Assembly: GCF_024700885.2 (NCBI RefSeq)
Contig: NZ_CP117016.1
Reading direction: 5' to 3' (one strand)
Length of the DNA stretch: 64,000 nt
DNA from: Escherichia coli
Lineage (GTDB): Bacteria; Pseudomonadota; Gammaproteobacteria; Enterobacterales; Enterobacteriaceae
In this document: positions 7,998 through 40,571 of the stretch, piece after piece
Position numbering within the stretch: position 1 is the stretch's first letter
How the letters are laid out: every line of letters starts with the position of its first letter
Program-made: the position numbers and the translations under genes
Notes under the pieces: model-generated
What the model saw: only the letters and a program-made list of their open reading frames with translations
Told to the model about the DNA's origin: nothing
The model's database searches: none

Positions 7998-8012
7998 TTA
8001 CCTTTCAGGTAA
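7998..8012. promoter_or_regulatory. operator TTACCTTTCAGGTAA
   Basis: Perfect TTACC-N5-GGTAA palindrome. Overlaps a +strand TAGACA(7971)-N17-GATATT(7994) promoter-like pair. Confidence 0.55.
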
Positions 8013-22952: not shown

Positions 22953-23245
22953 TCCTGTTCACTGGCCTCTTTGGCCATCTTCAAATACTGTTCAGGGCAA
23001 TGCGCCATAACGCGCTGAAACAGTTCCAGCGCCAGATTGCGTTGCCCCTCATTAAATGCCATTGCCATAGCATCCATCGGAGAGATAGCGGAAAACACCC
23101 GGCCTTTCTCCAGCACCGACCAGACAACGCGACGCCCCTGTTCACTGCTCATGACAAAGCGAATGTCATCAATTTCACGCTGTGCCATGTCACGTTGCTT
23201 ACGGGCGTTTTCTTCTTTCAGTTGATCGTCTTCGTAATCTGTCAT
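22949..23245 (-). CDS. small conserved head-module protein
   Basis: 98 aa, coupled to the portal stop and the scaffold start. Confidence 0.5.
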   Translation of the reverse strand: MTDYEDDQLKEENARKQRDMAQREIDDIRFVMSSEQGRRVVWSVLEKGRVFSAISPMDAMAMAFNEGQRNLALELFQRVMAHCPEQYLKMAKEASEQE

Positions 23246-24921
23246 TGTGATTGCCCACCCTGACCACTAACTGCATTCGCCATAGCTGACAAAACACTCG
23301 GATCCGAAGTTTTAGCTTCGCTTAGCGTCTTGGCACCCTGTGCCGCCGCCATCCCCATCGCCATCATTTGTTGCTGCTGTTGTTGCTGTGCCCGTTGCTG
23401 GCGAGCCTGCTCAACCTGTTCCTGCGGAACAATGACGGTTGGAGACACTCCGGACATATCAGCGAATGCATCGATCGCCTGATCAACGTTGAGTTTGTCG
23501 AGAGCTTCTGGTTTCGCTTGCGCAAGTTGACCAATAAAGTTGACCGTGGATGCCAGACTGGACAGGCCGATAGACTTCTGCGCCTGAGCCATGACGGAAA
23601 TGTATTCGACCTTCAGGGGCATACCTTCCATCGCGTCAGGCGGTGGCGGCAGCATGTTTTTACGCACCATCATCGAGAAAGCGCGGTCAATGAGAGGATT
23701 AAGACATTCGTCGTTCAGACGCTCCAGAACCGGCCCCAACATCAGAAGTTTTTCTTCTTTCATTTCGATCACCGCTTCAACAGGCATCGAGCGGGTATTG
23801 ATGTTCTGCAACATCATGAACAGATCGACAAAGTAGGCGCTGTTAATGATTTGACGAGTGTCCTGAATGTCTGCCACCAAATCTGCTGTACTGGGGTTAA
23901 CCAGATAAGCAGGCCTGAAACCATCCTGACCAGTAATCTGATCGATATACGTGATGTCGCCAGGAAGAAGGGAGGCACGCTGATTCTTGAGGGAAATCGG
24001 AGCAACCATCGGCGGATTGGTGGCTTTATCAATCAACTGCGACTTGCGCTTCTGGAGAAGCTGCAATGCCTTAACAGGTCCAAGCGCCAGCATACCCGGG
24101 CATGATGATCCATAAACATCTTCGCCGTTAACTTCCCAGCGCGGAGCCATAATTGGAAACTCATCGAATCCGGACTCACGCAACAACTTGTCGTTATCGC
24201 CACCAACCTCGTAATAAACCGATTTGAATGGCTTGTTCTTGCTATCCAGCTTCGATGTATCGCGGTCAATGTTCGGGTAAACCGAATGCATCACTTCAAT
24301 CCACTTCTCGTAGGTGCCGCTTTCCCACATGCTTTTTACGGATTCGCTGACGTTATTTAGCCCGAACTCCTGAACAAGCTGACGAACAGTCATAGAGAAC
24401 TTGCGAAAACAGGTGTCAACACTGCCACGAGGTGAGTTAGCCAGGTAGTAACTTCCTATCGGGAATGGCATTGTACGAATGATGTCCTCGTCATCCTCCA
24501 GCACCGCCATTGCGCCAGTGCTGTATGTGCCGAGGCTTCCGTATAACTGCGGCAGCGACTGATAGAGATTCGACTTATTGAACATATCGTTCATGCGGTT
24601 CTGCACCGCCTCAAGCCACAACTTAACAGGGCCATAATCCATCATTTCAGGATCTGGCGTAGCCAGGCGAAACCACGGACGCGCTGGGCTTGTGATGCCT
24701 GACATCATGCCGCTGGCGAGAGTGCGCGCCGCCATAGTCCCGGTCGAATCAATAATGCGTGTATTGCGTCGATCGTTACGGTTGACCTCAGAAGTCAGAA
24801 AGCGGGAACCACGCGGGTTGATGTAATCACTCAACTCGCGCCAGTGCGGCTCGAACGACTGACGCTCGCTTTCAAGTTGTGCGAACTGTTTGTTCAATCG
24901 CTCTTTAGTTGTTTCCGCCAT
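23242..24921 (-). CDS. portal protein
   Basis: 559 aa. Near the start of the leftward head operon, with a Gln/Ala-rich C-terminus; size and position are typical of portals. Confidence 0.85.
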   Translation of the reverse strand: MAETTKERLNKQFAQLESERQSFEPHWRELSDYINPRGSRFLTSEVNRNDRRNTRIIDSTGTMAARTLASGMMSGITSPARPWFRLATPDPEMMDYGPVKLWLEAVQNRMNDMFNKSNLYQSLPQLYGSLGTYSTGAMAVLEDDEDIIRTMPFPIGSYYLANSPRGSVDTCFRKFSMTVRQLVQEFGLNNVSESVKSMWESGTYEKWIEVMHSVYPNIDRDTSKLDSKNKPFKSVYYEVGGDNDKLLRESGFDEFPIMAPRWEVNGEDVYGSSCPGMLALGPVKALQLLQKRKSQLIDKATNPPMVAPISLKNQRASLLPGDITYIDQITGQDGFRPAYLVNPSTADLVADIQDTRQIINSAYFVDLFMMLQNINTRSMPVEAVIEMKEEKLLMLGPVLERLNDECLNPLIDRAFSMMVRKNMLPPPPDAMEGMPLKVEYISVMAQAQKSIGLSSLASTVNFIGQLAQAKPEALDKLNVDQAIDAFADMSGVSPTVIVPQEQVEQARQQRAQQQQQQQMMAMGMAAAQGAKTLSEAKTSDPSVLSAMANAVSGQGGQSQ

Positions 24922-24935
24922 TTCAATGACTCCGG

Positions 24936-25142
24936 TTACTGACCAAGCAGCGTTTTACCGCTGGTATTAGCGGTTGATGTGTCGCCCTGAGAACCGGTAA
25001 GCAGCGTAGAACTACGACCAGCAGCAGCGCGACGGCGACGAGTTTCTTCGTCGCGGGCATCAACAACGGCGGCATCCTGCTCCTGTGGTGCTGCCTGAAC
25101 TTCTGGTGTTGCAGGCACTGATGGTGAGCTACCCATGCACAT
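24936..25142 (-). CDS. small Ala/Arg-rich protein preceding the portal
   Basis: 68 aa with ACGGAG RBS. The overlapping frame 24923-25162 was rejected. Confidence 0.45.
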   Translation of the reverse strand: MCMGSSPSVPATPEVQAAPQEQDAAVVDARDEETRRRRAAAGRSSTLLTGSQGDTSTANTSGKTLLGQ

Positions 25143-25232
25143 ATCAATGACTCCGTACGCAATTAAATTATTACCAATTTAACCACATATGATTTATTTA
25201 TCGTAGATAGTTGACATTTAACGCACAAATTA

Positions 25233-25247
25233 TTACCTTTAAGGTAA
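25233..25247. promoter_or_regulatory. operator TTACCTTTAAGGTAA with adjacent TTGACA (25211-25216)
   Basis: Perfect TTACC-N5-GGTAA. A consensus -35 lies 17 nt upstream on the + strand. Confidence 0.55.
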
Positions 25248-25569
25248 CTAAAGAGTTCATTCCGGTTACTAACCTGACTGGCTTGTCGTTAAATTGAACA
25301 GGTGGAGTGAGCTTTTATTTTGAGCAGTACGGCGTATGGCACATGCGCCGATAGCGGTCTGGATACGTTTAAGGGGCACCCTCCCTTGCTCGGGCAAACG
25401 AACCAGGTAGCCGGAATGTGCAAGTCGAGCGGTTTTATTCCGCGCACGGGGATTCACCATCCCGGCTATTCGGTGTGACGCCTCGGAATAGACGAGGGTA
25501 CAACGATGAGAGCATTTATGGAGCTGCGACAAAGTGTGGCGCATTAACAGGCTAAGTGCTCTCAGCGTT

Positions 25570-25646
25570 GTGGCATTAGCTCAGCTGGACAGAGCAACCG
25601 CCTTCTAAGCGGTTGGTCGCAGGTTCGAATCCTGCATGCCACGCCA
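25570..25646 (+). tRNA. tRNA-Arg (anticodon UCU, reads AGA)
   Basis: Hand-folded cloverleaf: acceptor GTGGCAT/ATGCCAC, D-arm GCTC/GAGC, anticodon arm ACCGC-CTTCTAA-GCGGT, T-arm GCAGG-TTCGAAT-CCTGC, discriminator G, encoded CCA. Confidence 0.9.
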
Positions 25647-25689
25647 GAATCACGCCTAAGGACCGTGATGCCAGAAGTTCCAGGTGCTT

Positions 25690-25732
25690 GGCGGTGATGG
25701 TTTCCCTTGAAGGACTATCACCGCCCTTTTTT
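25690..25732 (+). terminator. rho-independent terminator after the tRNA
   Basis: GGCGGTGAT...ATCACCGCC followed by CTTTTTT. Confidence 0.7.
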
Positions 25733-25810
25733 ACAGCAGGACGCCATTGCGATGACTTCATGCTGTAAACCCGTACAGCCACGGAAGGCATAACTCATTG
25801 CTTCCAGTTC

Positions 25811-25834
25811 GCCCGGTTCGCCGGGCATTTTTTT
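25811..25834 (+). terminator. second rho-independent terminator
   Basis: GCCCGG-ttcg-CCGGGC followed by ATTTTTTT. Confidence 0.65.
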
Positions 25835-25942
25835 GGCGTGATACGTCACAATTATGATATCGATGCAGATTACGACATACATGAAAAACATGTCATAGTA
25901 TCTCCTGAGGTTAATCTCGATTCAAAAAGAGGATGATTTATA

Positions 25943-26290
25943 ATGATTAAAATCAATAACGTACGTGGTGCTAACGTTAGCGTCAACGGAGAAGACTTCA
26001 CTGGTCATCATATTACGATTAACAATGGAAAAGTGATCGTTGATGGTGTCGAAAAAAATAGCAATCTTGACGGACAGATTAACGTAACAATTAATGGAAG
26101 CGTGGAAGGCGTTGAGATTGAAAATGGATCAGTGACTGTAAGCGGTGATGCACATTATGTGAAAACTATGTCTGGTGATGTCCATTGTTCCAATGTATTG
26201 GGAAATGTAAACACCATGTCTGGAGATGTAATCTGCGAAACTGTTGGTGGAAACGCCAGCACAATGTCTGGAAATATTATCAAGAAATAA
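25943..26290 (+). CDS. beta-strand-repeat protein with three 16-aa TMSG(D/N)(V/I) repeats (function unknown)
   Basis: 115 aa with AAGAGGA RBS. Alternating V/I-x-V/I-x-G pattern; 48-bp DNA periodicity (ATG of TMSG at 26168, 26216, 26264). A hairpin-like GC-rich element and TTTGTTTT follow the stop. Confidence 0.6.
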   Translation: MIKINNVRGANVSVNGEDFTGHHITINNGKVIVDGVEKNSNLDGQINVTINGSVEGVEIENGSVTVSGDAHYVKTMSGDVHCSNVLGNVNTMSGDVICETVGGNASTMSGNIIKK

Positions 26291-26375
26291 TTATTTAAAA
26301 ATAAAGCCCGCCAAATGCGCGCGCTTTGTTTTATCCTCACCAGAGGATATCAACGACATTATCCCCACCAGCGGA

Positions 26376-27851
26376 TTAAGCATAGGGATCGTAATCTGTA
26401 ATGGCCTTGCCTTGCTGGTTCTGCTGACCTGGAATTCGCAGACGCTTCGACACAGGGAACGCAAACGTCAGCAGTAGCGCATCGCCTTTACCCGGCGAAC
26501 GCCCAAGCCGCTCCTTGATATCCTCCTTCGGTTCGATAACGATTTTACCGTCCACGCGAACTTTGTACTCTGCCGCCGACAGGTCGTCTGCAGTTTCCTG
26601 GTCATCCAGCATGCCGCCCAGCCTCAGCCATGTCTTGCATGAGTTGAACATCTCCCCGCGCTTGTTGAGCATCTGAGGGTCAGTTGACGCGCCACCGAAC
26701 GGAACAAGTTGCCATGTGCGCCCCCAGCCGTCACCGATTGACTTCAGGCCAGTACCGTAACCGAAGTCGATGAACACCGCGTCGGCCTGATACTGGTCTT
26801 CAAAGTCAGCGATACGCTTCGCCATAATCAGATCGTCGGTGGTCTTGTTGCCAGTCCACAGCACCTTACTGTGCAGCCCCTGCCGCAGGTATATCACCGC
26901 GTCATCAACGCCGGAGTATGCCGGGTCAACTCCGATTATCACCGGAGCATGTGCCACCTGCGCAGCGGTTACCACCCGTTTCATTGCCTCGTCAGTAAGA
27001 CCGGTAGGGATAAACTGCAATTCAGATGCATCAGGGAATATGCCACGCACACGGATTTTAACGAAGTCGCTGTCTTCCCCGTAGTCATCAACCCATTTCT
27101 GCAACTGCTGTTTGTTAGTGCCTTCCACCGTCCGGCTGTCAATCTGCGCAGTTTTCCAGCGGTGTTTATATTTGCGGAAACATTCTCGGAAACGTCCGGT
27201 ATTACGCGTCGGGTTTCCGAACGCCACCCAGATAATCTCAGTGTCTTCGTCCGTAAGCGCACCCTCGGCAACTTCCCACACCAGATCCGCAATGTTCGAC
27301 GCTTCATCGAATACCACGATGATACGTTTGCGCTCGTTGTGTAGTCCGGCGAACGCCTCAGTATTGTGCTCAGACCAGGGGATTGCGTCAGCTCGCCACC
27401 GCTTGTCGTGCCCAGGATCATTGCTGTACATCGCGGTAGCGGTACAGGTGAACCAGTCTTTCGTGATAGCAAGGTTCGACCACTTGATAATTTCCGGCCA
27501 GGTCTTCGTTCGTAGCTGGTTGTCGGTGTTGGCGGTCACCACGATCTTACAATCCTCGCAAGTGGACATGCCCCAGTTGATCAGCATTGAGATGAATGCG
27601 GATTTACCAATACCGTGACCAGAAGCGCGTGCCAGCATAAGCGGCTGATAGCGCGTCTCTGGATTCTGCAGGTGATCACGTATCTCTCGGAACGCATCAG
27701 CCTGCCACTGACGTGGGCCGGTGGCATGTGCCAGTTCAGTCCCCTCTTCCCCCCACGGGAACGCATAGAGGGCATAGCCAAGCGGATCGTGAGTGAACCC
27801 TGCAATATCCTCGATCAACTGCTCTTCAGGAGATAACGCTGTATCTGTCAC
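26376..27851 (-). CDS. terminase large subunit
   Basis: 491 aa with Walker A-like ASGHGIGKS. Overlaps the terS stop. Confidence 0.9.
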   Translation of the reverse strand: MTDTALSPEEQLIEDIAGFTHDPLGYALYAFPWGEEGTELAHATGPRQWQADAFREIRDHLQNPETRYQPLMLARASGHGIGKSAFISMLINWGMSTCEDCKIVVTANTDNQLRTKTWPEIIKWSNLAITKDWFTCTATAMYSNDPGHDKRWRADAIPWSEHNTEAFAGLHNERKRIIVVFDEASNIADLVWEVAEGALTDEDTEIIWVAFGNPTRNTGRFRECFRKYKHRWKTAQIDSRTVEGTNKQQLQKWVDDYGEDSDFVKIRVRGIFPDASELQFIPTGLTDEAMKRVVTAAQVAHAPVIIGVDPAYSGVDDAVIYLRQGLHSKVLWTGNKTTDDLIMAKRIADFEDQYQADAVFIDFGYGTGLKSIGDGWGRTWQLVPFGGASTDPQMLNKRGEMFNSCKTWLRLGGMLDDQETADDLSAAEYKVRVDGKIVIEPKEDIKERLGRSPGKGDALLLTFAFPVSKRLRIPGQQNQQGKAITDYDPYA

Positions 27852-28444
27852 TGATTACCATCCTGACGTTCTTTGAGTCGCTTCCTGGCTGCTGCTATGC
27901 GATCAGCAATTGTCACATTCACATTAACATCCAGACGTTCTTTGAACGCGTTGACATCAACATGCTTACCAATCAGCTCAAGGTTCTTCACCTTGTCAGG
28001 CCATTTAATTTTTTTGAGGATTGTCTCTATCGAATCCTCGTTCATGTTCATGATGGTCGATGACAGATCAAAGCCACTAAGCGTAGTGCGCCAGATTTTC
28101 GGCCACTCGCGGATTGGCTTAAGGCTCCCATCGTCGTTGAGGATGTCGATCACATCCATCTGGTCGATCTCCACCAGGCGCATAAGAACGTAATCGGCAC
28201 TGACGCGCATTCGTTTGTTGCGCTCCTCCATCAGCTCGGCAATCCGTTTTTGAATGCGTTCATCGCGCATCATGACACTGGCTTTAACTGCCGCTGTATT
28301 TGGGGAGAATCCTGCGTTAATCGCTGCCTGAGTCTGGTTTTCAGGCGTTTTGATGTATGACTGGCAATAAGCCTCCTGCATTGCTGTTAGTGGCTTAAAT
28401 TGCGTTGATTTGCGTTTATAGGTTTTAGGTTCAGCAGGCATCAT
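27848..28444 (-). CDS. terminase small subunit
   Basis: N-terminal HTH-like region (AMQEAYCQSYIKTPENQTQAAINAGFSPNTAAVKA). Start moved to ATG 28444 (MMPAEPK), which has GGTGG upstream. Confidence 0.75.
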   Translation of the reverse strand: MMPAEPKTYKRKSTQFKPLTAMQEAYCQSYIKTPENQTQAAINAGFSPNTAAVKASVMMRDERIQKRIAELMEERNKRMRVSADYVLMRLVEIDQMDVIDILNDDGSLKPIREWPKIWRTTLSGFDLSSTIMNMNEDSIETILKKIKWPDKVKNLELIGKHVDVNAFKERLDVNVNVTIADRIAAARKRLKERQDGNQ

Positions 28445-28452
28445 AACCACCG

Positions 28453-28483
28453 TGGTAATAGTTACCGTTTTGGTAATAGTACC
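28453..28483. repeat. two direct copies of tGGTAATAGT(T)ACC, each an inverted pair of operator half-sites
   Basis: 28453-28466 and 28471-28483, between a terminator and the terS start. Confidence 0.6.
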
Positions 28484-28484
28484 A

Positions 28485-28513
28485 TGCAAAACAAAGCCGC
28501 CATAGTTGGCGGC
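28485..28513 (-). terminator. rho-independent terminator between the regulator-like gene and terS
   Basis: Minus strand reads GCCGCC-aactat-GGCGGC-TTTGTTTTG. Confidence 0.55.
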
Positions 28514-28562
28514 AGTATTCAAAACCCATCAAATTCATCATGCATAATCTACTCGTGACATG

Positions 28563-28904
28563 TCACACTATTAATTTCGTTTCATGCCAGCCTTTAGTCA
28601 CCCAGCATTGCGAGTCACCATTACACGGGCATGAATTAACTGGAACTCTCCCGCCGCACTTACCGCAACGTTTTCTGCTGATCGATTTTATACGCCCGCG
28701 CACGCGTGCATCATCCTGGCGGATCAGTAACGCTATATACTCACCAAATTCGTAAGGCGCACGCCCGGGGCGACGCGTGGCACAGTTACGCTCCAGCATT
28801 TCAATTTCCTGAGCATCAAGCACAATTTCCAGCTTACGCACACCAGATGCAGCTTGTCTGGCTCTCTGAGCGGCTTTGCGCTCTGCTGCTGATTTAGCCA
28901 TCAA
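28563..28904 (-). CDS. putative DNA-binding regulator (basic N-terminus plus C-terminal Cys cluster), candidate late-gene regulator
   Basis: 113 aa: MMAKSAAERKAAQRARQAASGVRKLEIVLDAQEIEMLE..., then CGKCGG-x8-CPC-x5-C. It is the last early-operon gene before the packaging genes. Confidence 0.45.
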   Translation of the reverse strand: MMAKSAAERKAAQRARQAASGVRKLEIVLDAQEIEMLERNCATRRPGRAPYEFGEYIALLIRQDDARVRGRIKSISRKRCGKCGGRVPVNSCPCNGDSQCWVTKGWHETKLIV

Positions 28905-28936
28905 TATTTACCTTTATCGCGAACACCTTTACCGGT

Positions 28937-29179
28937 TTATCTCCTTTGCATGGCACGTAATTTTTTCAGATGGTTCTCCTGTTCTGTTTCAGCCAGGATC
29001 TGGTGATATTCTCTGTGATCAATGTGTTCGAATAAATTATTGAATTTTCTGATGCACACCCTTCCAGGATAGCCATCCATCCTCTTGAAGAACACTGAGT
29101 GATCAGTACTACGAATGATTTTTACTGGATAGCCGGCGCTATCGGTGTATATCTGACCACGTTGAATCAGAGAGAACAT
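28937..29179 (-). CDS. hypothetical early protein
   Basis: 80-aa ORF in the leftward early operon. Confidence 0.5.
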   Translation of the reverse strand: MFSLIQRGQIYTDSAGYPVKIIRSTDHSVFFKRMDGYPGRVCIRKFNNLFEHIDHREYHQILAETEQENHLKKLRAMQRR

Positions 29180-29240
29180 TCGCTTATCCCCAGATAAAAA
29201 TATAGCAATACCAATTACATAAAATACTTCAGGCCAAGCA

Positions 29241-30026
29241 TCATTTCACCTCCTGCGGCGGTTCTGGTAGAGGCATCCAGTGTGACGGTTTCCACGACGC
29301 ACCAGGAATTATCCACCCATCATTAGCGTCAGGATGCCCGGGGATGTAAGTAGCCCATTTCATTCGCCAGTCACCTTTCCTGTCAAACTCCACGGCAACA
29401 AGAACGGCTGTTTTGGTATTCGGCATTCGCTCACTACAGCTTATCCAACCATCCGGAGTTACCGGAGAGTTGACAGCCAGTCTGCGCAAAACAGCCTTAA
29501 CAGCCTCAATACGGTCATCATCGCAATTTTCCAGCGTATCTATGCGGTCGAGCATGATGATGGCGTTATCAATATCAGGATTGCCAGTCCACTCATTACT
29601 GCGATTGGATTCGGCAGCCTGGTTGCCAGATGCTGGTTGATTGTCGGCTTGGCTATAGCTAACAGCACGGCAGGCATCCTCTACGCCTTTAACTGCATCT
29701 GCGCAGTAGTTATAGCGATTGCATTCCACTAACTTCTGCTTGAGGTTTTCAATTGCTTGCGCGACATTAGCCTGTGTTACCGGCACAGGTGGAGCGGCGA
29801 ATAGATATCCTCCAAAGTCAGGAAGCTCTCCAATGGCCTGTACGAACTTTTGTTTGCCTACGTCAATTCCTAATGGGTAGTGAGCTATAATTTTTGCCAC
29901 TGGCTCTGCCTCCAGCGATGCCAGAGCAATTTCATAAGCACGGCGCTCAATATTGTCTCGCACGTCCAGGCTGCCGATTCGCTCTTTGATTTCTTTAATC
30001 AGTTCTTTGTCGGTTAAAGTGGTCAT
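29241..30026 (-). CDS. early protein with C-terminal DUF551-like domain
   Basis: C-terminus WISCSERMPN...VLVAV...W...SHWMPLPEPP matches the DUF551 pattern I recall from lambdoid prophages. Confidence 0.6.
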   Translation of the reverse strand: MTTLTDKELIKEIKERIGSLDVRDNIERRAYEIALASLEAEPVAKIIAHYPLGIDVGKQKFVQAIGELPDFGGYLFAAPPVPVTQANVAQAIENLKQKLVECNRYNYCADAVKGVEDACRAVSYSQADNQPASGNQAAESNRSNEWTGNPDIDNAIIMLDRIDTLENCDDDRIEAVKAVLRRLAVNSPVTPDGWISCSERMPNTKTAVLVAVEFDRKGDWRMKWATYIPGHPDANDGWIIPGASWKPSHWMPLPEPPQEVK

Positions 30027-30232
30027 TTGTTAATCCTCAAAACTTTATGCCCGGGCGCAAAAGCACGCGTTTTGTCTTTGCTTATTCGCCACCCGTCTTT
30101 ACGGGCCTCTTTTGCACAACCAGACCATGACGTACCGATATACTCACCGAAGTTTGGCACTGGATATACACCTTCCGTACACTGGCGACAATCACAATAG
30201 AGATGCATGGTGTAACTTGCGGCAATAGCCAT
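30023..30232 (-). CDS. hypothetical small Cys-rich early protein
   Basis: Start set at ATG 30232 (MAIAASYTMHLYCDCRQC). Confidence 0.45.
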   Translation of the reverse strand: MAIAASYTMHLYCDCRQCTEGVYPVPNFGEYIGTSWSGCAKEARKDGWRISKDKTRAFAPGHKVLRINK

Positions 30233-30233
30233 A

Positions 30234-30422
30234 TCACTCTCCTTTAGTACGCAAGTGGTTTTTCCAGCGGTTTTGCGCCGCGCTGGGCTTTTTGCAAAAA
30301 CCACAATCCATCATCCCGTAATGTTTCATTAACCCCATCCGTCGGTTGCTGAGTCTCACCCACTGCCAGACGCCAGGACCGTTTCTGCGAACTAATAGGA
30401 TTTTTGCTTTACGGTTTTTCAT
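30234..30422 (-). CDS. hypothetical small basic protein
   Basis: 62 aa from the internal Met of ORF 30234-30587 (MKNRKAKILLVRRNG). Begins 5 nt after the upstream stop. Confidence 0.35.
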   Translation of the reverse strand: MKNRKAKILLVRRNGPGVWQWVRLSNRRMGLMKHYGMMDCGFCKKPSAAQNRWKNHLRTKGE

Positions 30423-30426
30423 CGCT

Positions 30427-31158
30427 TTACTCTTCTTCCTCACGCCCAAGATATGAAAGAGATGTGACTGCTGTTGCATGGAAACAACAAACCTTGCTAA
30501 GTGCGCTTTTAAACTCTTCAAGGTCGGATTGCGATTTGATTCTGAAAGGTGACTGCGCAATCCCGGACATGGTAATGCCGCTAACATTGCTCACTGCGCT
30601 GTAGTGATATACGTGCCTATTAGCTGATTGAGCCACGTGTTCCTGTTGGCTGTTTATATTGGCGTCCTGTCTTGTGTTGGCCTGCTCCAACTCTTCGATA
30701 CGTTCAGCCATCGCAGCACACTCTTCAAAGTTGCTTAATGCTTTTCGCTCCGATTCAGCGCATTGTTTTTCCAGTTCTGCTATGCGCTTACCTCCATCCA
30801 CGATTACTCCCTCGTAATGCTCGCGCTGCTCGTTGAGTTTTGATTTTGCCGACTCCAGTTGTTTTGTTAGTTCCGCAATACGGCAAACATCGTTGATACG
30901 CGTTTCCTCTAATGCGTTGATCTCATCCAGTAGTGCCAGCGCAACTTTTGGTGGGATAGCCGCGATATAACGGGCATTAGCACCAGCATTCCTTTGCCCA
31001 TCAATGCCAGGCCAGTCAATAAAGTATCCGCAATGCCTACCCTCAGACGTGCGCGCAGGATAAATGCCGTTATGACCCGGCAAAATATATGCTACCCATT
31101 CATCTTGCGTTGCCTGTTCCGCCGCCTCGCGCAGTGCCTGATAATTAATCTTGCTCAC
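30427..31158 (-). CDS. Ea22-like coiled-coil early protein
   Basis: 243 aa. The N-terminal YQALREAAEQATQDEW... and central coiled coil resemble the ead/Ea22-like family. Confidence 0.5.
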   Translation of the reverse strand: MSKINYQALREAAEQATQDEWVAYILPGHNGIYPARTSEGRHCGYFIDWPGIDGQRNAGANARYIAAIPPKVALALLDEINALEETRINDVCRIAELTKQLESAKSKLNEQREHYEGVIVDGGKRIAELEKQCAESERKALSNFEECAAMAERIEELEQANTRQDANINSQQEHVAQSANRHVYHYSAVSNVSGITMSGIAQSPFRIKSQSDLEEFKSALSKVCCFHATAVTSLSYLGREEEE

Positions 31159-31808
31159 TGGCTGCCTCCTTTGCGAAGCTGTTCAGCGATATCTTCGAGA
31201 ACGCCATCAGAGAATGAGCGGTCAAAATCGCCTTCCCGCGCATTAGCCATAAACTCAGTAGAGGTAAGAATCATCCGGGCAATATCCGCGGCGTTCTTCG
31301 CAGTATCATCAATAAAACCAGCTTCCCAAGCAGCCAGCATTCTGTTCGCCACAAAGTAAGCGCCCTCCTTGCGTGCTTCAGTCTTCACTTCATCCAGGAA
31401 AGTGTCGGTCGCAGGAGTGGTTTTTTGTGGTGATAGGGCGATACGAATTGTTTCAAGAGCTGGATCTATTTCCACTGTTGGCACTTTGATAAAACCAAGC
31501 TGCACGCCATTCATAATGAACGTGCGGCGATCCTCACATATCGCCTTCAGCGCCGCATTCTCCGCTGCCAGCGCCGAAAACTTCTCATGTGCCAACTTAA
31601 CAGCCGAATCAGCCTGCTTAATTGACTCAATCGCTCTCTGGTGGTCTTCGGCCAGCGCATTAGCACGCACCAGTTGCACTTCAAGTTGCGTTGCCAAATC
31701 GCTGATCAGCTTTGCCACACTGCGCATATCAACGGCACCACATTCTGCTTTCAGTTCCGAAGCCATCTCATGCCCGGTGGAAACTAACCCTTTGATATTA
31801 CTTTCCAT
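31155..31808 (-). CDS. coiled-coil early protein
   Basis: 217-aa ORF with GAGGG RBS. Confidence 0.5.
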   Translation of the reverse strand: MESNIKGLVSTGHEMASELKAECGAVDMRSVAKLISDLATQLEVQLVRANALAEDHQRAIESIKQADSAVKLAHEKFSALAAENAALKAICEDRRTFIMNGVQLGFIKVPTVEIDPALETIRIALSPQKTTPATDTFLDEVKTEARKEGAYFVANRMLAAWEAGFIDDTAKNAADIARMILTSTEFMANAREGDFDRSFSDGVLEDIAEQLRKGGSQ

Positions 31809-31869
31809 CTTTACCCTCGCTTATCCACATAACTTATTGATAACATTGATAACTAAAAAGATCGTCGAT

Positions 31870-32214
31870 TCAGAACTCTTCGATTTTCCATCCGCCACCT
31901 GCTTTCTTTGGCTTAACCGTTACCCCGATGATTCGGAACGGATACTGATCTGCGGCGATTTTGGTTTTCACCCTGGCGTCGTCTGTCCAGAAACCTTTCA
32001 CTTCGTGCAGTTCCATCTCTCCGGTGGCGAGCATCACAGCAAAATCTGGCGTATAGAACGTGTTGTCAGCTAACCGCAGCTTGATACCCTCGAATCGATA
32101 CCAGGCGATTTCCCCTGCACGTTTACGCTGCTCAAGGTGCTGGCAATACGCAGATTCTGTTTTGTTCATCTGGCCTGTTTTGAGTCGACCAAGAGCCTGC
32201 ATCTGTTTTCTCAT
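31870..32214 (-). CDS. DUF1064-like protein (RecU/resolvase-like fold family)
   Basis: 114 aa. The pattern SAYCQHLE...YTPDF...ELHEVKG... fits my recollection of DUF1064. Confidence 0.55.
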   Translation of the reverse strand: MRKQMQALGRLKTGQMNKTESAYCQHLEQRKRAGEIAWYRFEGIKLRLADNTFYTPDFAVMLATGEMELHEVKGFWTDDARVKTKIAADQYPFRIIGVTVKPKKAGGGWKIEEF

Positions 32215-32217
32215 GAT

Positions 32218-32232
32218 TTACCTCTGAGGTAA
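32218..32232. promoter_or_regulatory. operator TTACCTCTGAGGTAA
   Basis: Perfect TTACC-N5-GGTAA, 4 nt upstream of start codon 32214. It contains that gene's GAGG RBS. Confidence 0.5.
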
Positions 32233-32279
32233 TTAAAAACCACATAAGACACGAAATCAATAGAGTTTAGAATATTTTA

Positions 32280-32294
32280 TTACCTGATGGGTAA
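32280..32294. promoter_or_regulatory. operator TTACCTGATGGGTAA
   Basis: Perfect TTACC-N5-GGTAA. A minus-strand TTGATT-N17-TTTAAT promoter-like pair lies between it and 32218-32232. Confidence 0.5.
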
Positions 32295-32331
32295 TTATTT
32301 GAGCGTAAAAAAATGCGCTATCGCGCTGGTA

Positions 32332-33117
32332 TTACTTGATAAATCCTGCCGCCTTTCCCCGCCTGTATTCCTCCATCAGCCACTGCGCCGGTGTTATTCC
32401 CCCAAGGGTGGCGGCGTTAGGCATGCATCCGAAACTTCGCCCTGGTGGATGGTAAACGTCTCTCCCTGTGTCCGGAGGTGTACTCATGGGCTCTGGCTTT
32501 GCCTGTATGCTGATCACCGGATCGGGTATCTGCTGTCCGGAAGCCACCTTTTTCGCCCAATCATCGAGCAGCCTGCGCGCGTGTTTCTCAACCTCAATCT
32601 CGCTAAGCTGGCGCTGATACATTGCACGGCGGGTATCACATACGACCCAGTACATAACCGGATGTCGCCACGGGAATCTTTCGGGACCACCAGGATATAA
32701 ACTTTTTTCCTTGCTGTACCGGTGAAACTCCGCCATCACATCGTCAATGGTGACGCCAAGAACCATCTTGCTGTCTTTACACCACTTGATGAATTGCCCA
32801 GGCGACGGCCAGAACGGAGATTCACTGGCGCGGGCGTGGCGCATACCAGCAGAAACCTGTTCACGGGTTCGGATCCCCCCTTCGGCAAACGCAGCAATCC
32901 ACTGCTGTTTTGCAGCTACTTCCTGCCCTGGCGTCTTCAGGTTGGTTACCACTGCCGCCGGAAACAGTTGTTTCAGCTGTTTGAAAAGGGCATCAACAAG
33001 CCTCTCTGCTGACATGTTAACCACATTGTCATTGTTGACGTACTGATGCTCATAACCTGACATGCGAGAAAGGGCTTCTCCGTCACGGTTTTGTATCGCG
33101 GTAAAAACGTTGTTCAC
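32332..33117 (-). CDS. lambda P-like replication (helicase loader) protein
   Basis: Alignable by eye to lambda P (QWI.AF.E.GI.T.EQV.AGMR.AR....PF.PSPGQF..WC). GTG 33117 overlaps the O-like stop as GTGA, with GGAGGA upstream. Confidence 0.75.
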   Translation of the reverse strand: MNNVFTAIQNRDGEALSRMSGYEHQYVNNDNVVNMSAERLVDALFKQLKQLFPAAVVTNLKTPGQEVAAKQQWIAAFAEGGIRTREQVSAGMRHARASESPFWPSPGQFIKWCKDSKMVLGVTIDDVMAEFHRYSKEKSLYPGGPERFPWRHPVMYWVVCDTRRAMYQRQLSEIEVEKHARRLLDDWAKKVASGQQIPDPVISIQAKPEPMSTPPDTGRDVYHPPGRSFGCMPNAATLGGITPAQWLMEEYRRGKAAGFIK

Positions 33118-33929
33118 AAGAAATCCTCCCATGCTTCAGGGCTGTTCCAGTGCGGAACGTTGTTATCAGGTAATGTTGATTGCTTCTGTCTGCTAATCTG
33201 CAGCCGCCTTGCCAGCTTCTGCTCCCACTGTGCCTGATGGTATGCCTTACCCTCAGCCATCCAGTAAATTCTGAACTCTGCAAGTTCCTGTGCCGTTGGC
33301 AGACTGTCCAGGTAGATCCCCTGCAATGAGCTTTTCCGAAGAAAGTCATCTGATGGCTGCCATTGTTCATGCATGACAAATTTTCCTAATTGCCCTGGTC
33401 CACCAGGAGGAACAAAGTTATTCATCACGGCGTTGTTTGCTCCGGGGTCATGAGGCACAGAATCCCCGCTTTTTGTCCTGCTCTCCCTCTCTTGGTTAAA
33501 TGACTGGTTATATGACTGGTTCTGGATCCCGTTTTTGGGATCATTCAACATCCCGTTTTTGGGATCATTCAACATCCCGTTTTTGGGTATATTCCCGTTT
33601 TCGGGAACATTACCGTTTTCGGGTTCATTACGTCCTTCTAGGTTGCCTTTAATGTTCCCTTTTTTGGTTATATTAAGAGAGAAAACCCGCACTCTTTTCG
33701 TCGCTCCCTTTCTCTCTCCGGTATCTGAAATAAGCCCCATTTTCATGAGCGATATAAGCCCGGCCTGCACGGTTTTTTTATTCAGGCAAGTGTCTTTAAC
33801 GAGGCGTTCTATGCTGGGGTAGCAGAGGTTATATTCATCGGCTCTGTCAGCCATCGAGAGCAGTATGAGCTTTAATGACGAGCTACCTGGATCTGTCTCC
33901 CAGGCCCAATCTGTTGCATGTCTGCTCAT
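33114..33929 (-). CDS. lambda O-like replication initiator (N-terminal winged-HTH), contains the origin iterons
   Basis: 271 aa. N-terminal DNA-binding-like region and an internal NG-rich repeat encoded by the iterons. Immediately upstream of the P-like gene. Confidence 0.7.
   Translation of the reverse strand: MSRHATDWAWETDPGSSSLKLILLSMADRADEYNLCYPSIERLVKDTCLNKKTVQAGLISLMKMGLISDTGERKGATKRVRVFSLNITKKGNIKGNLEGRNEPENGNVPENGNIPKNGMLNDPKNGMLNDPKNGIQNQSYNQSFNQERESRTKSGDSVPHDPGANNAVMNNFVPPGGPGQLGKFVMHEQWQPSDDFLRKSSLQGIYLDSLPTAQELAEFRIYWMAEGKAYHQAQWEQKLARRLQISRQKQSTLPDNNVPHWNSPEAWEDFL
33528..33623. repeat. origin iterons: five copies of (C/A)CCGTTTT(T/C)GGG spaced 24, 24, 18, 18 bp
   Basis: Cores at 33528, 33552, 33576, 33594 and 33612, inside the O-like gene as in ori-lambda. 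Confidence 0.7.
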
Positions 33930-33944
33930 GATTAATCTCCGCTA

Positions 33945-34145
33945 TCAGCTTGAATGTTGTGGGGAGGAATTAATCATGATCTGCTTAATCTCAGCCCTGA
34001 TGCGACGGTTTGATTCCATGGTGCACTCAACACAGTGTCCGTTGTAAACCCAGCGTTCACTGTCATGTCCGTGCTTACATGGTTTTCCGGTGTAGTAGCG
34101 TTTAAGTCCGCGCTTTGCGGCATCAATACGTGTAATGATTTCCAT
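33945..34145 (-). CDS. small zinc-ribbon-like protein
   Basis: MEIITRIDAAKRGLKRYYTGKPCKHGH...NGHCVEC. The ORF-track start 34214 falls inside a regulatory box, so ATG 34145 was preferred. Confidence 0.45.
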   Translation of the reverse strand: MEIITRIDAAKRGLKRYYTGKPCKHGHDSERWVYNGHCVECTMESNRRIRAEIKQIMINSSPQHSS

Positions 34146-34680: not shown

Positions 34681-35265
34681 ATGAAAAGTATCCAAGACGT
34701 CCGCAGGCAAAATCTCAACGACTTGATCGACCGTGAATTCAATGGTGTTCAGACGCGGATGGCTGAAAAACTTGGAACTCAGGCAAATCTGGTAAACCGC
34801 TGGGCTCTTGGCAAGAAGGTTATCGGCGACCAGGTTGCGCGAAAAATTGAAGCTGCCGCCAATAAACCACGTAACTGGCTTGATATCGATCGCTCGCTTT
34901 CTCAGGAGGGTTTTCAGCCTGTCGGACCAAGCGACATTGGTCAGCTGGCGGCTCACAACCTGGAACGCTGGATGAGCGAAAGCCGCGACCTTTCAACACA
35001 GGGAAAACTTCACCGCGCATCCGGCGTCGCCCAAGTGACAATCAGCCGCCTGTTAAACAATGAGGTCAGCGTTTCCATTTCCACCCTGGAGAATGTTGCA
35101 TCTGCATTCGGACGTCACGGATATGAACTACTGATTCACCCGCACGACCCTGCAACTATCAACTATGACCGCTCGCGCTACGCATTGTTACCTGAAACCG
35201 AGAAAGCAAAGATCGAAAGTTACATTGAATTTGTCATCAACCAGAACGAAAAAAACAAACAATAA
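34681..35265 (+). CDS. prophage repressor with two tandem XRE-type HTH domains, no S24 peptidase domain
   Basis: 194 aa. HTH1 is TRMAEKLGTQANLVNRWALGKK; HTH2 is KLHRASGVAQVTISRLLNNE. No Ala-Gly / Ser-Lys autocleavage module is visible. Confidence 0.75.
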   Translation: MKSIQDVRRQNLNDLIDREFNGVQTRMAEKLGTQANLVNRWALGKKVIGDQVARKIEAAANKPRNWLDIDRSLSQEGFQPVGPSDIGQLAAHNLERWMSESRDLSTQGKLHRASGVAQVTISRLLNNEVSVSISTLENVASAFGRHGYELLIHPHDPATINYDRSRYALLPETEKAKIESYIEFVINQNEKNKQ

Positions 35266-40554: not shown

Positions 40555-40571
40555 AATCATTCCCACTCAAT
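40555..40571. repeat. attR core (aatcaTtcccactcaat)
   Basis: Direct repeat of 1539-1555. Contains the guaA stop codon and last four codons. Confidence 0.7.

Follow-up and report, generated by a model that had tools for sequence, protein, structure and literature searches.

In a 64,000-nucleotide stretch of Escherichia coli DNA (contig NZ_CP117016.1 of assembly GCF_024700885.2; hereafter the window), a + strand block at 25143-26375 lies between the large terminase gene terL and a gp3-like gene of a prophage. Comparison with related phages identifies this block as the module that epsilon15-like (Uetakevirus) prophages normally have between terL and gp3, of a repressor-controlled type that combines a tRNA gene with cargo. 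Its leader contains a ~240-nt multi-helix RNA that apparently represents an undescribed and very common phage RNA family, and this RNA may act in cis to let RNA polymerase pass the terminators that follow it. We hold the module architecture and the RNA family, taken alone, to be very probable, and the whole explanation with antitermination included, taken as one statement, to have a little better than an even chance of being right. The island itself is ordinary, being a known, already sequenced and partly annotated genus-wide module of a tRNA plus a moron, which corrects the idea of an earlier note on this DNA that an accessory island had been inserted here.

The terL-gp3 module and its exchangeable slot

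The block region is ~97% identical to phage TL-2011b (97.1% over the whole 1.8 kb) and phiV10 is a close relative, from which it follows that the window carries an epsilon15-like (Uetakevirus) prophage. We compared its terL-gp3 site with those of TL-2011b, phiV10, epsilon15, SPN9TCW and two Klebsiella phages, and every one of these relatives holds a + strand block between terL and gp3. The earlier note had assumed that terL normally abuts the portal gene in phages of this type and that an insertion splits the two. The first assumption is false for Uetakevirus, as seen in the annotated relatives, and in the window too a 68-aa gp3-like gene, homologous to epsilon15p03, PhiV10p06 and TL-2011b gp25, precedes the portal gene; the second does not survive the finding of a block at the same site in all relatives. 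The note is borne out in that transcription of the block runs opposite to that of the packaging and head genes.

The part of the block from 25143 to 25834 is a backbone shared by the genus, 75-98% conserved across Escherichia, Salmonella, Klebsiella and Enterobacter phages, and it comprises the promoter/operator, the leader, a first terminator (T1), an ~85-nt tail and a second terminator (T2), all of which are conserved genus-wide (coordinates are collected in Table 1). Homology to every relative ends at 25834/25835, directly 3' of the U-run of T2, and restarts at 26305 in the case of phiV10, or else in or adjoining terL between about 26380 and 26442. As the breakpoint follows T2 in every comparison, only 25835-26304 (470 bp) is exchangeable. 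Alignment with relatives had been named in the earlier note as a check on its island, with a block carried by all of them counting against it, and the outcome is divided, the backbone being common to all and 25835-26304 varying between them.

With the terL-gp3 regions of epsilon15, phiV10, TL-2011b and SPN1S/SPN9TCW the block agrees in position, orientation, promoter/operator, leader hairpin, T1-T2 tail and terminators, and it thus has the features by which we recognize the Uetakevirus module, namely a + strand block with the conserved promoter/operator region, the T1-T2 tail and T2. Uetakevirus records already annotate the tRNA-Arg, terminators, repressor and IHF sites and an RNase III site; an annotation of a structured RNA was not found in those examined. 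What varies is the cargo open reading frame (ORF), which encodes a 115-aa repeat protein here and in TL-2011b, a 121-123-aa Sf6-gp66-like protein in phiV10 and epsilon15, a product of 168 aa in SPN9TCW and a DUF2829 protein in Klebsiella phages.

An alternative would be that a horizontally acquired, self-contained cassette of promoter, leader, tRNA, small RNA (sRNA) and protein entered the genome of this phage in particular, between terL and the portal gene. Such an event would suit a block that opposes its flanking genes and is equipped with promoter, operator and terminators of its own, as well as an ORF part of foreign base composition that differs between relatives. However, the block stands at the same place in every relative with its backbone conserved to the degree given above, the swap is confined to 470 bp, and the block has its regulatory region in common with the gp3/head operon. 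We consider an insertion unlikely, and the comparison with relatives already largely refutes it. Of the self-contained, regulated cargo cassette that had been proposed, an operator-overlapped promoter belonging to the block and an exchangeable part do stand, but the block is not self-contained.

The TTGACA promoter with an overlapping operator that the earlier note described is present. Its -35 hexamer (TTGACA, 25212-25217) is invariant across the genus, and the perfect palindrome at 25233-25247 covers its -10 hexamer, TACCTT, which misses the 4/6 rule of a stock scanner for -10 hexamers; transcription is predicted to start near 25247. The operator motif (at most 3 mismatches) has 19 strand-matches at ~13 sites in the window versus 1.05 expected, and these cluster around the gene of an HTH repressor and in front of terS. 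In addition, sites labelled 'repressor' and 'IHF' are found at the homologous place in the GenBank record of epsilon15. Given this annotation and the enrichment of the motif, the palindrome is almost certainly the operator of the prophage repressor, and we infer promoter activity and repressor control of the block. Palindromes of the form TTACC-N5-GGTAA occur at 7998, 28462, 32218, 32280, 34563, 34611, 35323, 35385 and 40407 in addition to 25233, that is, around the HTH repressor gene, before terS, close to the integrase/att end and following the tailspike gene, and their scatter suggests a P1-like multi-site repression that would include the packaging and head operons. The whole of 25163-25247 is almost invariant: a 38-nt run, TTGAC and TTACC-N5-GGTAA are kept in Escherichia, Salmonella and Klebsiella phages, and two AAATTATTACC boxes (6 matches against 0.76 expected) are spaced 62 bp from start to start.

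A conserved structured RNA read on the + strand

The ~320-nt leader of the earlier note exists, but not as a tRNA leader; it contains a member of an RNA family that is mostly found with no tRNA. It begins with a hairpin, H0, the stem of which is kept through compensatory differences in epsilon15 and Klebsiella phages and the homologue of which is labelled in the epsilon15 record as an RNase III site, on the - strand. The structured core and the hairpin P8 that follow make up a ~240-nt multi-helix RNA (25329-25570), one stretch of which is GGUAGCCGGAAUGUGCAAG. When its copies are aligned, invariant blocks alternate with variable hairpins of many lengths. In the helix model of P1, P2, P4, the pseudoknot P5, the long-range P7 and P6, 12 pairs are compensatory (both sides changed), and 93.5% of cells are paired versus 28-50% for slid partners, a value reached by 0/500 shuffles. 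P7 is a weak helix, with one position nearly always mismatched. P8 occurs in about 35 distinct stem variants with compensatory changes across loci. Pairs of G with U, which on the opposite strand would be A-C, are frequent, which places the RNA on the + strand, like the tRNA.

A covariance model (R1) built from the alignment finds one copy in the window (139.8 bits, E=5.5e-39) and a remnant in epsilon15 (39 bits). Rfam 15 has no match to the element at E <= 1 in the window or in six other loci; the same scans recovered tRNA, C4 and isrK, which indicates that the method worked.

Small protein-coding genes are a very improbable source of this conservation. The candidates would be a 52-aa + strand ORF (25320-25478), - strand ORFs over the leader and a - strand ORF over the tRNA and T1-T2; ORFs are indeed annotated there in some records, 25576-25791 on the - strand matches phrog_4647 with E=1.5e-29, and - strand frames of 88-98 codons are open in phiV10, SPN9TCW and ST512. 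Nevertheless, the element shows no codon periodicity, its variable columns being spread as 23/41, 26/41 and 25/42 by codon position, and the lengths of the core represent all three classes modulo 3. In the window the - strand ORF carries a frameshift, in epsilon15 and BUCT711 it is short, 4/4 changed codons in its best-conserved stretch are non-synonymous with third positions invariant, and the compensatory changes in T2 rewrite its peptide. Running antisense through the tRNA, T1 and T2, the phrog_4647 ORF (phiV10p04 and TL-2011b gp24, at L001:3677-3928 and L002:3677-3928 among our extracted loci) looks mis-called.

Outside the genus, the leader part 25329-25569 is ~80% identical to unannotated DNA of otherwise unrelated-looking phages. 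The family as a whole was found in 86 phage records, at one place in each. Carriers outside the genus include lambdoid phages (mEp460, cdtI, and Stx2c- and Stx2a-converting phages), P1, P7, D6, SJ46 and RCS47, the Klebsiella phage SopranoGao and Stenotrophomonas phages. In a scan for the exact 19-mer GGTAGCCGGAATGTGCAAG, IMG/VR gave at least 120 loci, and 24 species representatives, nearly all from Enterobacterales, were matched as well; in a second scan, keyed on another block, the 19-mer was almost invariant even though unselected. By blastn the element is present in 1,832/5,426 complete E. coli genomes, at 2,462 places of which 550 are on plasmids, and in every RefSeq row among the matches listed the annotated features under the element read 'none'. 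Text searches for the 19-mer and its parts retrieved nothing relevant, although an earlier mention in the epsilon15 or P1 genome papers or in a 2026 preprint on non-coding RNA mining is possible; the papers on the prophage sRNAs Pas, AgvB and AsxR concern other loci.

The contexts of the element differ between phage groups. Wherever it occurs, it lies on the transcribed strand of a repressor-controlled early operon, often near the start of that operon. In lambdoid phages it immediately follows the cI-like repressor gene, and the two share a strand. In mEp460, a cI terminator comes first together with a PL-like promoter and its operators, the element starts ~25 nt on, and a terminator of -19 kcal/mol follows it ahead of 11 early-left genes, in a phage with a Q-like protein and no annotated N. 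The P1 copy is located in the C1-controlled ban operon, with trnI on one side and ban on the other, and P1-like elements have tRNA arrays just upstream, the element beginning about 15 nt after the tRNA 3' end. Overall, a tRNA adjoins the element at about 40% of loci, and about 60% have none nearby. Phage epsilon15 (L003:4047-4125) keeps the 5' third only, a deletion from the middle of P2 to the 3' half of T1 having taken out the remaining two thirds along with the tRNA; as epsilon15 is viable with this deletion, both are dispensable for it.

We also note several features seen at individual loci. Lambdoid copies have a second multi-hairpin domain of ~130 nt after P8, closed by a perfect 10-bp helix of GUUGUGGUGA and UCACCACAAC (L008:2735-2880 in mEp460, and equivalents); it occupies the place that the tRNA has here, begins with the same GUGG and is followed by a strong terminator. 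The Rfam matches in mEp460 to C4 antisense RNA (83.6 bits) and isrK (67 bits), at L008:206-293 and 318-394 in or adjoining an antirepressor-like gene, belong to known families. A hammerhead-like (type I) motif, CUGAAGAG ... CGAAAC ... GUC, lies ~20 nt after the core at L065:384-430 (IMG/VR 3300011242_000058), with 28.7 bits against a gathering score of 34 and E=5.5e-05 in a local scan. As a general neighbour of the element this motif can be set aside, a regex check having found it at 1/157 element copies.

Possible functions of the structured RNA

Whereas the anatomy of the block, its conservation, and the structure, strand and distribution of the RNA are shown by the comparisons, we infer processing of the transcript and antitermination along the following lines. 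On derepression, the sigma-70 promoter overlapped by the repressor operator would fire rightward, against the packaging and head genes, to give, as in a stable-RNA operon, an untranslated transcript, which would run through H0, the ~240-nt RNA, tRNA-Arg(UCU), T1, the ~85-nt tail and T2 and would yield the tRNA and the structured RNA. The nascent RNA would protect RNA polymerase against termination at the downstream sites, namely T1 and T2 in the window and the PL-proximal terminators in N-less lambdoid phages, and this resistance would allow expression of the cargo ORF and of early-left genes. In the module, the polymerase would then reach the 470-bp cargo, an AT-rich spacer followed by the gene of a beta-solenoid-like protein of 115 aa, and would stop at a third terminator (T3) that also ends terS-terL; transcription of gp3 and the portal gene would restart from the conserved region. 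A cis-acting, host-directed RNA of this put-like kind is our leading suggestion, though a tentative one that falls well short of even probability.

Several observations are consistent with antitermination, which would explain why two strong terminators precede promoterless cargo ORFs, why a strong terminator precedes early-left genes that lack N, and why the element lies close to promoters. In the redundant set, a same-strand terminator follows within 700 nt at 92/125 loci, versus 43/125 on the opposite strand, and 21/37 non-redundant representatives have a promoter-like site no more than 130 nt upstream, versus 10/37 for the control strand. No phage protein was seen that is common to the lambdoid, P1-like and epsilon15-like contexts, and the junctions of the RNA are near-identical in them, so that its partner is probably a host component. 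Other observations weigh against such a role. The association with terminators is weak in the non-redundant representatives (21/37 on the same strand, 13/37 on the opposite strand), P1-type copies lie 2.4 kb from the promoter without a terminator downstream, and there is one copy per phage, unlike put with its one per early operon. A terminator-resistant polymerase would also be expected to pass T3 and run antisense into terL; epsilon15 is viable despite having lost most of the element; and the flanking tRNA, with the hammerhead-like motif in one locus, and the bracketing hairpins fit the release of a discrete RNA equally well.

The closest functional likeness is to the put RNA of phage HK022, a cis-acting processive antiterminator of ~70 nt with two stem-loops that is found at PL and PR (PMC9378689). 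A put RNA binds RNA polymerase and, with no protein factor, suppresses both pausing and termination. Like put, the element is an untranslated, structured nascent RNA close to the promoter of the early (PL) operon of an N-less lambdoid phage, with terminators downstream, and no phage protein would be needed for its action. In contrast to put, it measures ~170-240 nt, has at least 6 helices and occurs once per phage, and the covariance model has no match in the PL/PR region of HK022 (24000-34000). On size, structure, copy number and model search, membership in the put family is thus rejected, and the likeness would be functional only.

In lambda N/nut and in rrn boxA, too, an RNA signal in the leader of an early or stable-RNA operon precedes terminators, and the element resembles them in this respect. 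Some P8 variants even hold UGCUCUUU, the first 8 bases of rrn boxA; others have, for example, GUGCGCUCCC in its place. A boxA or lambda-type nut site in P8 was rejected, as the string lies inside a paired stem, covaries with its partner and is unconserved, and the resemblance is probably due to chance. In the element-carrying phages mEp460 and WGPS2, no N gene is annotated.

Stable or structured RNAs are known beside phage or prophage tRNAs, among them the species 1 and 2 RNAs of T4 and the ROOL and GOLLD RNAs. With the ROOL/GOLLD type the element shares its link to tRNA genes in phage genomes; unlike these RNAs it is much smaller, has no sequence or model match to them, and in most copies is not beside a tRNA. 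As such, the core and P8 may constitute a new class of host-directed phage RNA without a described relative, either an RNA that reprograms polymerase or a processed effector, riboswitch or ribozyme, exchanged horizontally among lambdoid, P1-like, epsilon15-like and other Enterobacterales phages and Stenotrophomonas phages. We give this about as much credence as the put-like action itself.

The element heads the early-left operon of many N-less lambdoid prophages, including Stx2-converting ones; it also lies within the P1 ban operon, and it is carried by O157-associated phiV10-like prophages. If it does control termination, it would explain how these lambdoid phages express their early-left genes past a strong PL-proximal terminator, and it would be a second, structurally different case of control of RNA polymerase by RNA only. 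If it acts in trans instead, it would be a very common phage effector.

Action in trans is the nearest competitor to antitermination, and we regard it as possible but a little less likely. Here the element would be a processed stable RNA, for example a decoy or regulator of a host factor or defence system, and the terminators downstream would merely end a stable-RNA operon. RNase III would cut H0 and P8, and RNase P would cut the 5' end of the tRNA at the last base of P8, releasing an RNA of ~200-240 nt. The abutment of P8 on base +1 of the tRNA fits this, as do the start of P1-type elements ~15 nt beyond the tRNA 3' end at the end of tRNA arrays, the hammerhead-like motif 20 nt after the core in one locus and the RNase III label that the epsilon15 record gives to H0. 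Conserved junction strands and a possible pseudoknot would suit a specific binding partner, and early repressor-controlled operons, where the element lies, are the usual place of anti-defence functions in phages. On the other side, the analysis identified no target or partner, the majority of loci have no tRNA nearby, the hammerhead-like motif is confined to that one copy, the 3' end is unmarked in many lambdoid copies, and the cleavage sites are predictions only.

Far less probable is a ligand-sensing riboswitch or a ribozyme in the core, with alternative pairings controlling tRNA maturation or downstream expression, such as GCACAU in the P1 loop with AUGUGC, or the base of P8 against downstream helices. 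The multi-helix junction, about 60 highly conserved unpaired bases and the candidate pseudoknot would suit it; RNAalifold returned, as a competitor of the covarying P1, an alternative pairing of 6 bp that is invariant, and in mEp460 the GUUGUGGUGA that follows P8 has a possible partner in UCACCACAAC, about 130 nt farther on. However, the alternative pairings show no covariation, their bases being invariant, the terminators lie 145-330 nt away with, in the window, a whole tRNA in between, which is unlike a classical expression platform, and no riboswitch or ribozyme model matches. An RNA of a type III toxin-antitoxin system was also considered and rejected, as the leader has no tandem repeats and the downstream ORF differs between relatives.

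Cargo, tRNA, tail and neighbouring genes

Table 1. Features of the terL-gp3 module and its surroundings, with positions in the window
Feature	Position	Strand	Description
Portal gene	23242-24921	-	PF12236, E=9.8e-187
gp3-like gene	24936-25142	-	68 aa, first of the leftward head operon; phrog_831, E=2.4e-36
Genus-conserved regulatory region	about 25163-25247	.	direct repeat AAATTATTACC at 25165 and 25227, -35 TTGACA, operator
Rightward sigma-70-type promoter (predicted)	-35 25212-25217, -10 25235-25240	+	TTGACA-17 nt-TACCTT; 9/12 consensus matches
Operator (putative)	25233-25247	.	perfect palindrome TTACCTTTAAGGTAA, overlaps the -10 hexamer
Leader hairpin H0	25251-25316	+	long stem AAGAGUUCAUUCC / GGAGUGAGCUUUU; minimum free energy fold
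Structured RNA core	25329-25501	+	P1, P2, P3 (variable), P4, possible pseudoknot P5, P6; highly conserved joining strands
Hairpin P8	25501-25570	+	CAACGAUGAGAGCAU ... AGUGCUCUCAGCGUUG; final base is tRNA base +1
tRNA-Arg(UCU)	25570-25646	+	anticodon TCT, CCA encoded; ARAGORN; Rfam RF00005 71.7 bits (gathering score 29)
T1, intrinsic terminator	25690-25734	+	14-bp stem 25690-25725 and U6; -22.8 kcal/mol, z = -5.0
Conserved tail	25730-25810	+	invariant ACGCCATTGCGATGAC and two hairpins; genus-specific, ~85 nt
T2, intrinsic terminator	25811-25834	+	GCCCGG-UUCG-CCGGGC 25811-25826 and U7
Exchangeable cargo (moron) slot	25835-26304	+	spacer 25835-25942, ORF 25943-26290
T3, bidirectional terminator	26298-26332	.	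hairpin between A-run and U-run; shared by cargo ORF (+) and terL (-)
terL	26376-27851	-	homologous to annotated large terminases of TL-2011b, phiV10 and epsilon15
terS	about 27848-28522	-	224-aa ORF, TTG start
HTH_3 repressor	34681-35265		194 aa; flanked by operator motif matches

The slot at 25835-26304 has the marks of a moron, with ORFs that differ among close relatives, atypical GC content and sharp breakpoints. Its GC content is 33-39%, against ~55% in the neighbours. Like the lambda bor and lom genes and the morons of HK97, it is a small ORF of foreign composition between essential genes, followed by a terminator (T3) and differing among relatives. Unlike them, it has no promoter of its own that we could confirm, and the ORFs of the relatives, directly 3' of T2, depend on the upstream module. 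The AT-rich promoter region of the earlier note is AT-rich (25843-25942, 33% GC), but the scan gave no + strand sigma-70 match in 25835-25942. In epsilon15, phiV10, SPN9TCW and Klebsiella ST512 the ribosome-binding site of the cargo ORF starts directly 3' of the U-run of T2, which leaves no room for a promoter, so that these ORFs can be reached only by read-through of T2.

The 115-aa repeat protein that the earlier note reported is encoded at 25943-26290, in an ORF with four copies of an internal 33-nt repeat, and it is unrelated (18% identity) to the products of the same slot in phiV10 and epsilon15. It belongs to phrog_3163, and its homologues, at least 1101 in number and 105-125 aa long, lack any Pfam domain; such homologues, with an MSGD-type repeat, were seen in Enterobacter, Shewanella, Acinetobacter, Fusobacterium and many metagenomes. 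Its structure is confidently predicted as all-beta and solenoid-like (predicted local distance difference test score, pLDDT, 86). Foldseek found no significant match for the model in the PDB (best E=1.3), and no Pfam match was found for the protein at E <= 0.1. A beta-helix of the bactofilin or DUF4097 type was rejected as an assignment, with bactofilin at E=0.28 by sequence only and no significant structure match, and remains a resemblance.

The tRNA-Arg(UCU) of the block was confirmed by both ARAGORN and Rfam. AGA codons number 5.05 per 1000 in prophage genes and 0.79 per 1000 in the flanking host genes, a use ~6x that of the host flank, and the tRNA fits codon supplementation, its specificity matching the AGA excess of the prophage as in other phage tRNAs for rare codons. 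Fragments that resemble tRNA, with perfect T-arm-like CUGGUUCAAUUCCAG and CCGUUCGAUUCGG, lie between the core and the next feature in SPN9TCW (L004:3526-3645) and Stx2a_WGPS2 (L012:about 2690-2790); ARAGORN calls no tRNA in them, and they may be scars of tRNA clusters.

Both terminators flanking the tail, and the ACAGCA...TGCTGT hairpin segment before T2, are present as the earlier note had them, the inverted repeat spanning 25730-25769. The stem of T1 covaries with that of SPN9TCW, and the stem of T2 shows a compensatory change in Salmonella phages, from GCCCGG/CCGGGC to GCCCAC/GTGGGC. The tail was found in 35 phage records, all epsilon15-like and including the tRNA-less epsilon15, and it is possibly an sRNA-like 3' segment; no separate promoter was found for it. 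Antisense regulation of the portal start by the tail was rejected: 14/15 pairs could form here, a match count not above chance, and the portal start differs in epsilon15, SPN9TCW and Klebsiella phages though the tail is invariant.

The terminator-like hairpin that closes the block is likewise present, as T3, with -14.3 (+) and -14.8 (-) kcal/mol, weaker than in TL-2011b (-21.4 and -23.5). phiV10 has a - strand terminator annotated at this position. An Rfam match to Trp_leader at 26239-26332 (25.3 bits, gathering score 41) was rejected as merely T3. At terS, the 224-aa ORF contains within its 5' end a terminator on the - strand (28488-28512) together with an operator (28462-28476), and with these ahead of terS and T3 after terL, terS-terL looks like a separate transcription unit. 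The earlier note had left the leftward transcript a choice between reading antisense through the block and restarting; given that T3 is bidirectional and that the conserved 38-nt run precedes gp3, restart is favoured, and transcription of gp3 and the portal gene most likely starts anew from the conserved regulatory region. At the scanner's threshold no - strand sigma-70 promoter was found for gp3, and an activator may be needed.

The true start of terS is probably an ATG near 28441, in agreement with the 197-aa annotation in TL-2011b. The window begins inside the prophage and extends past the guaA attachment into the guaB/xseA host flank, and the att core ATTGAGTGGGAATGATT has a single occurrence in it, at 40555, at the 3' end of guaA, which is the integration site reported for Uetakevirus (PMC9782041). 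The element region is 100% identical to that of E. coli MLI114 (NZ_CP117013.1, 1476935-1477175).

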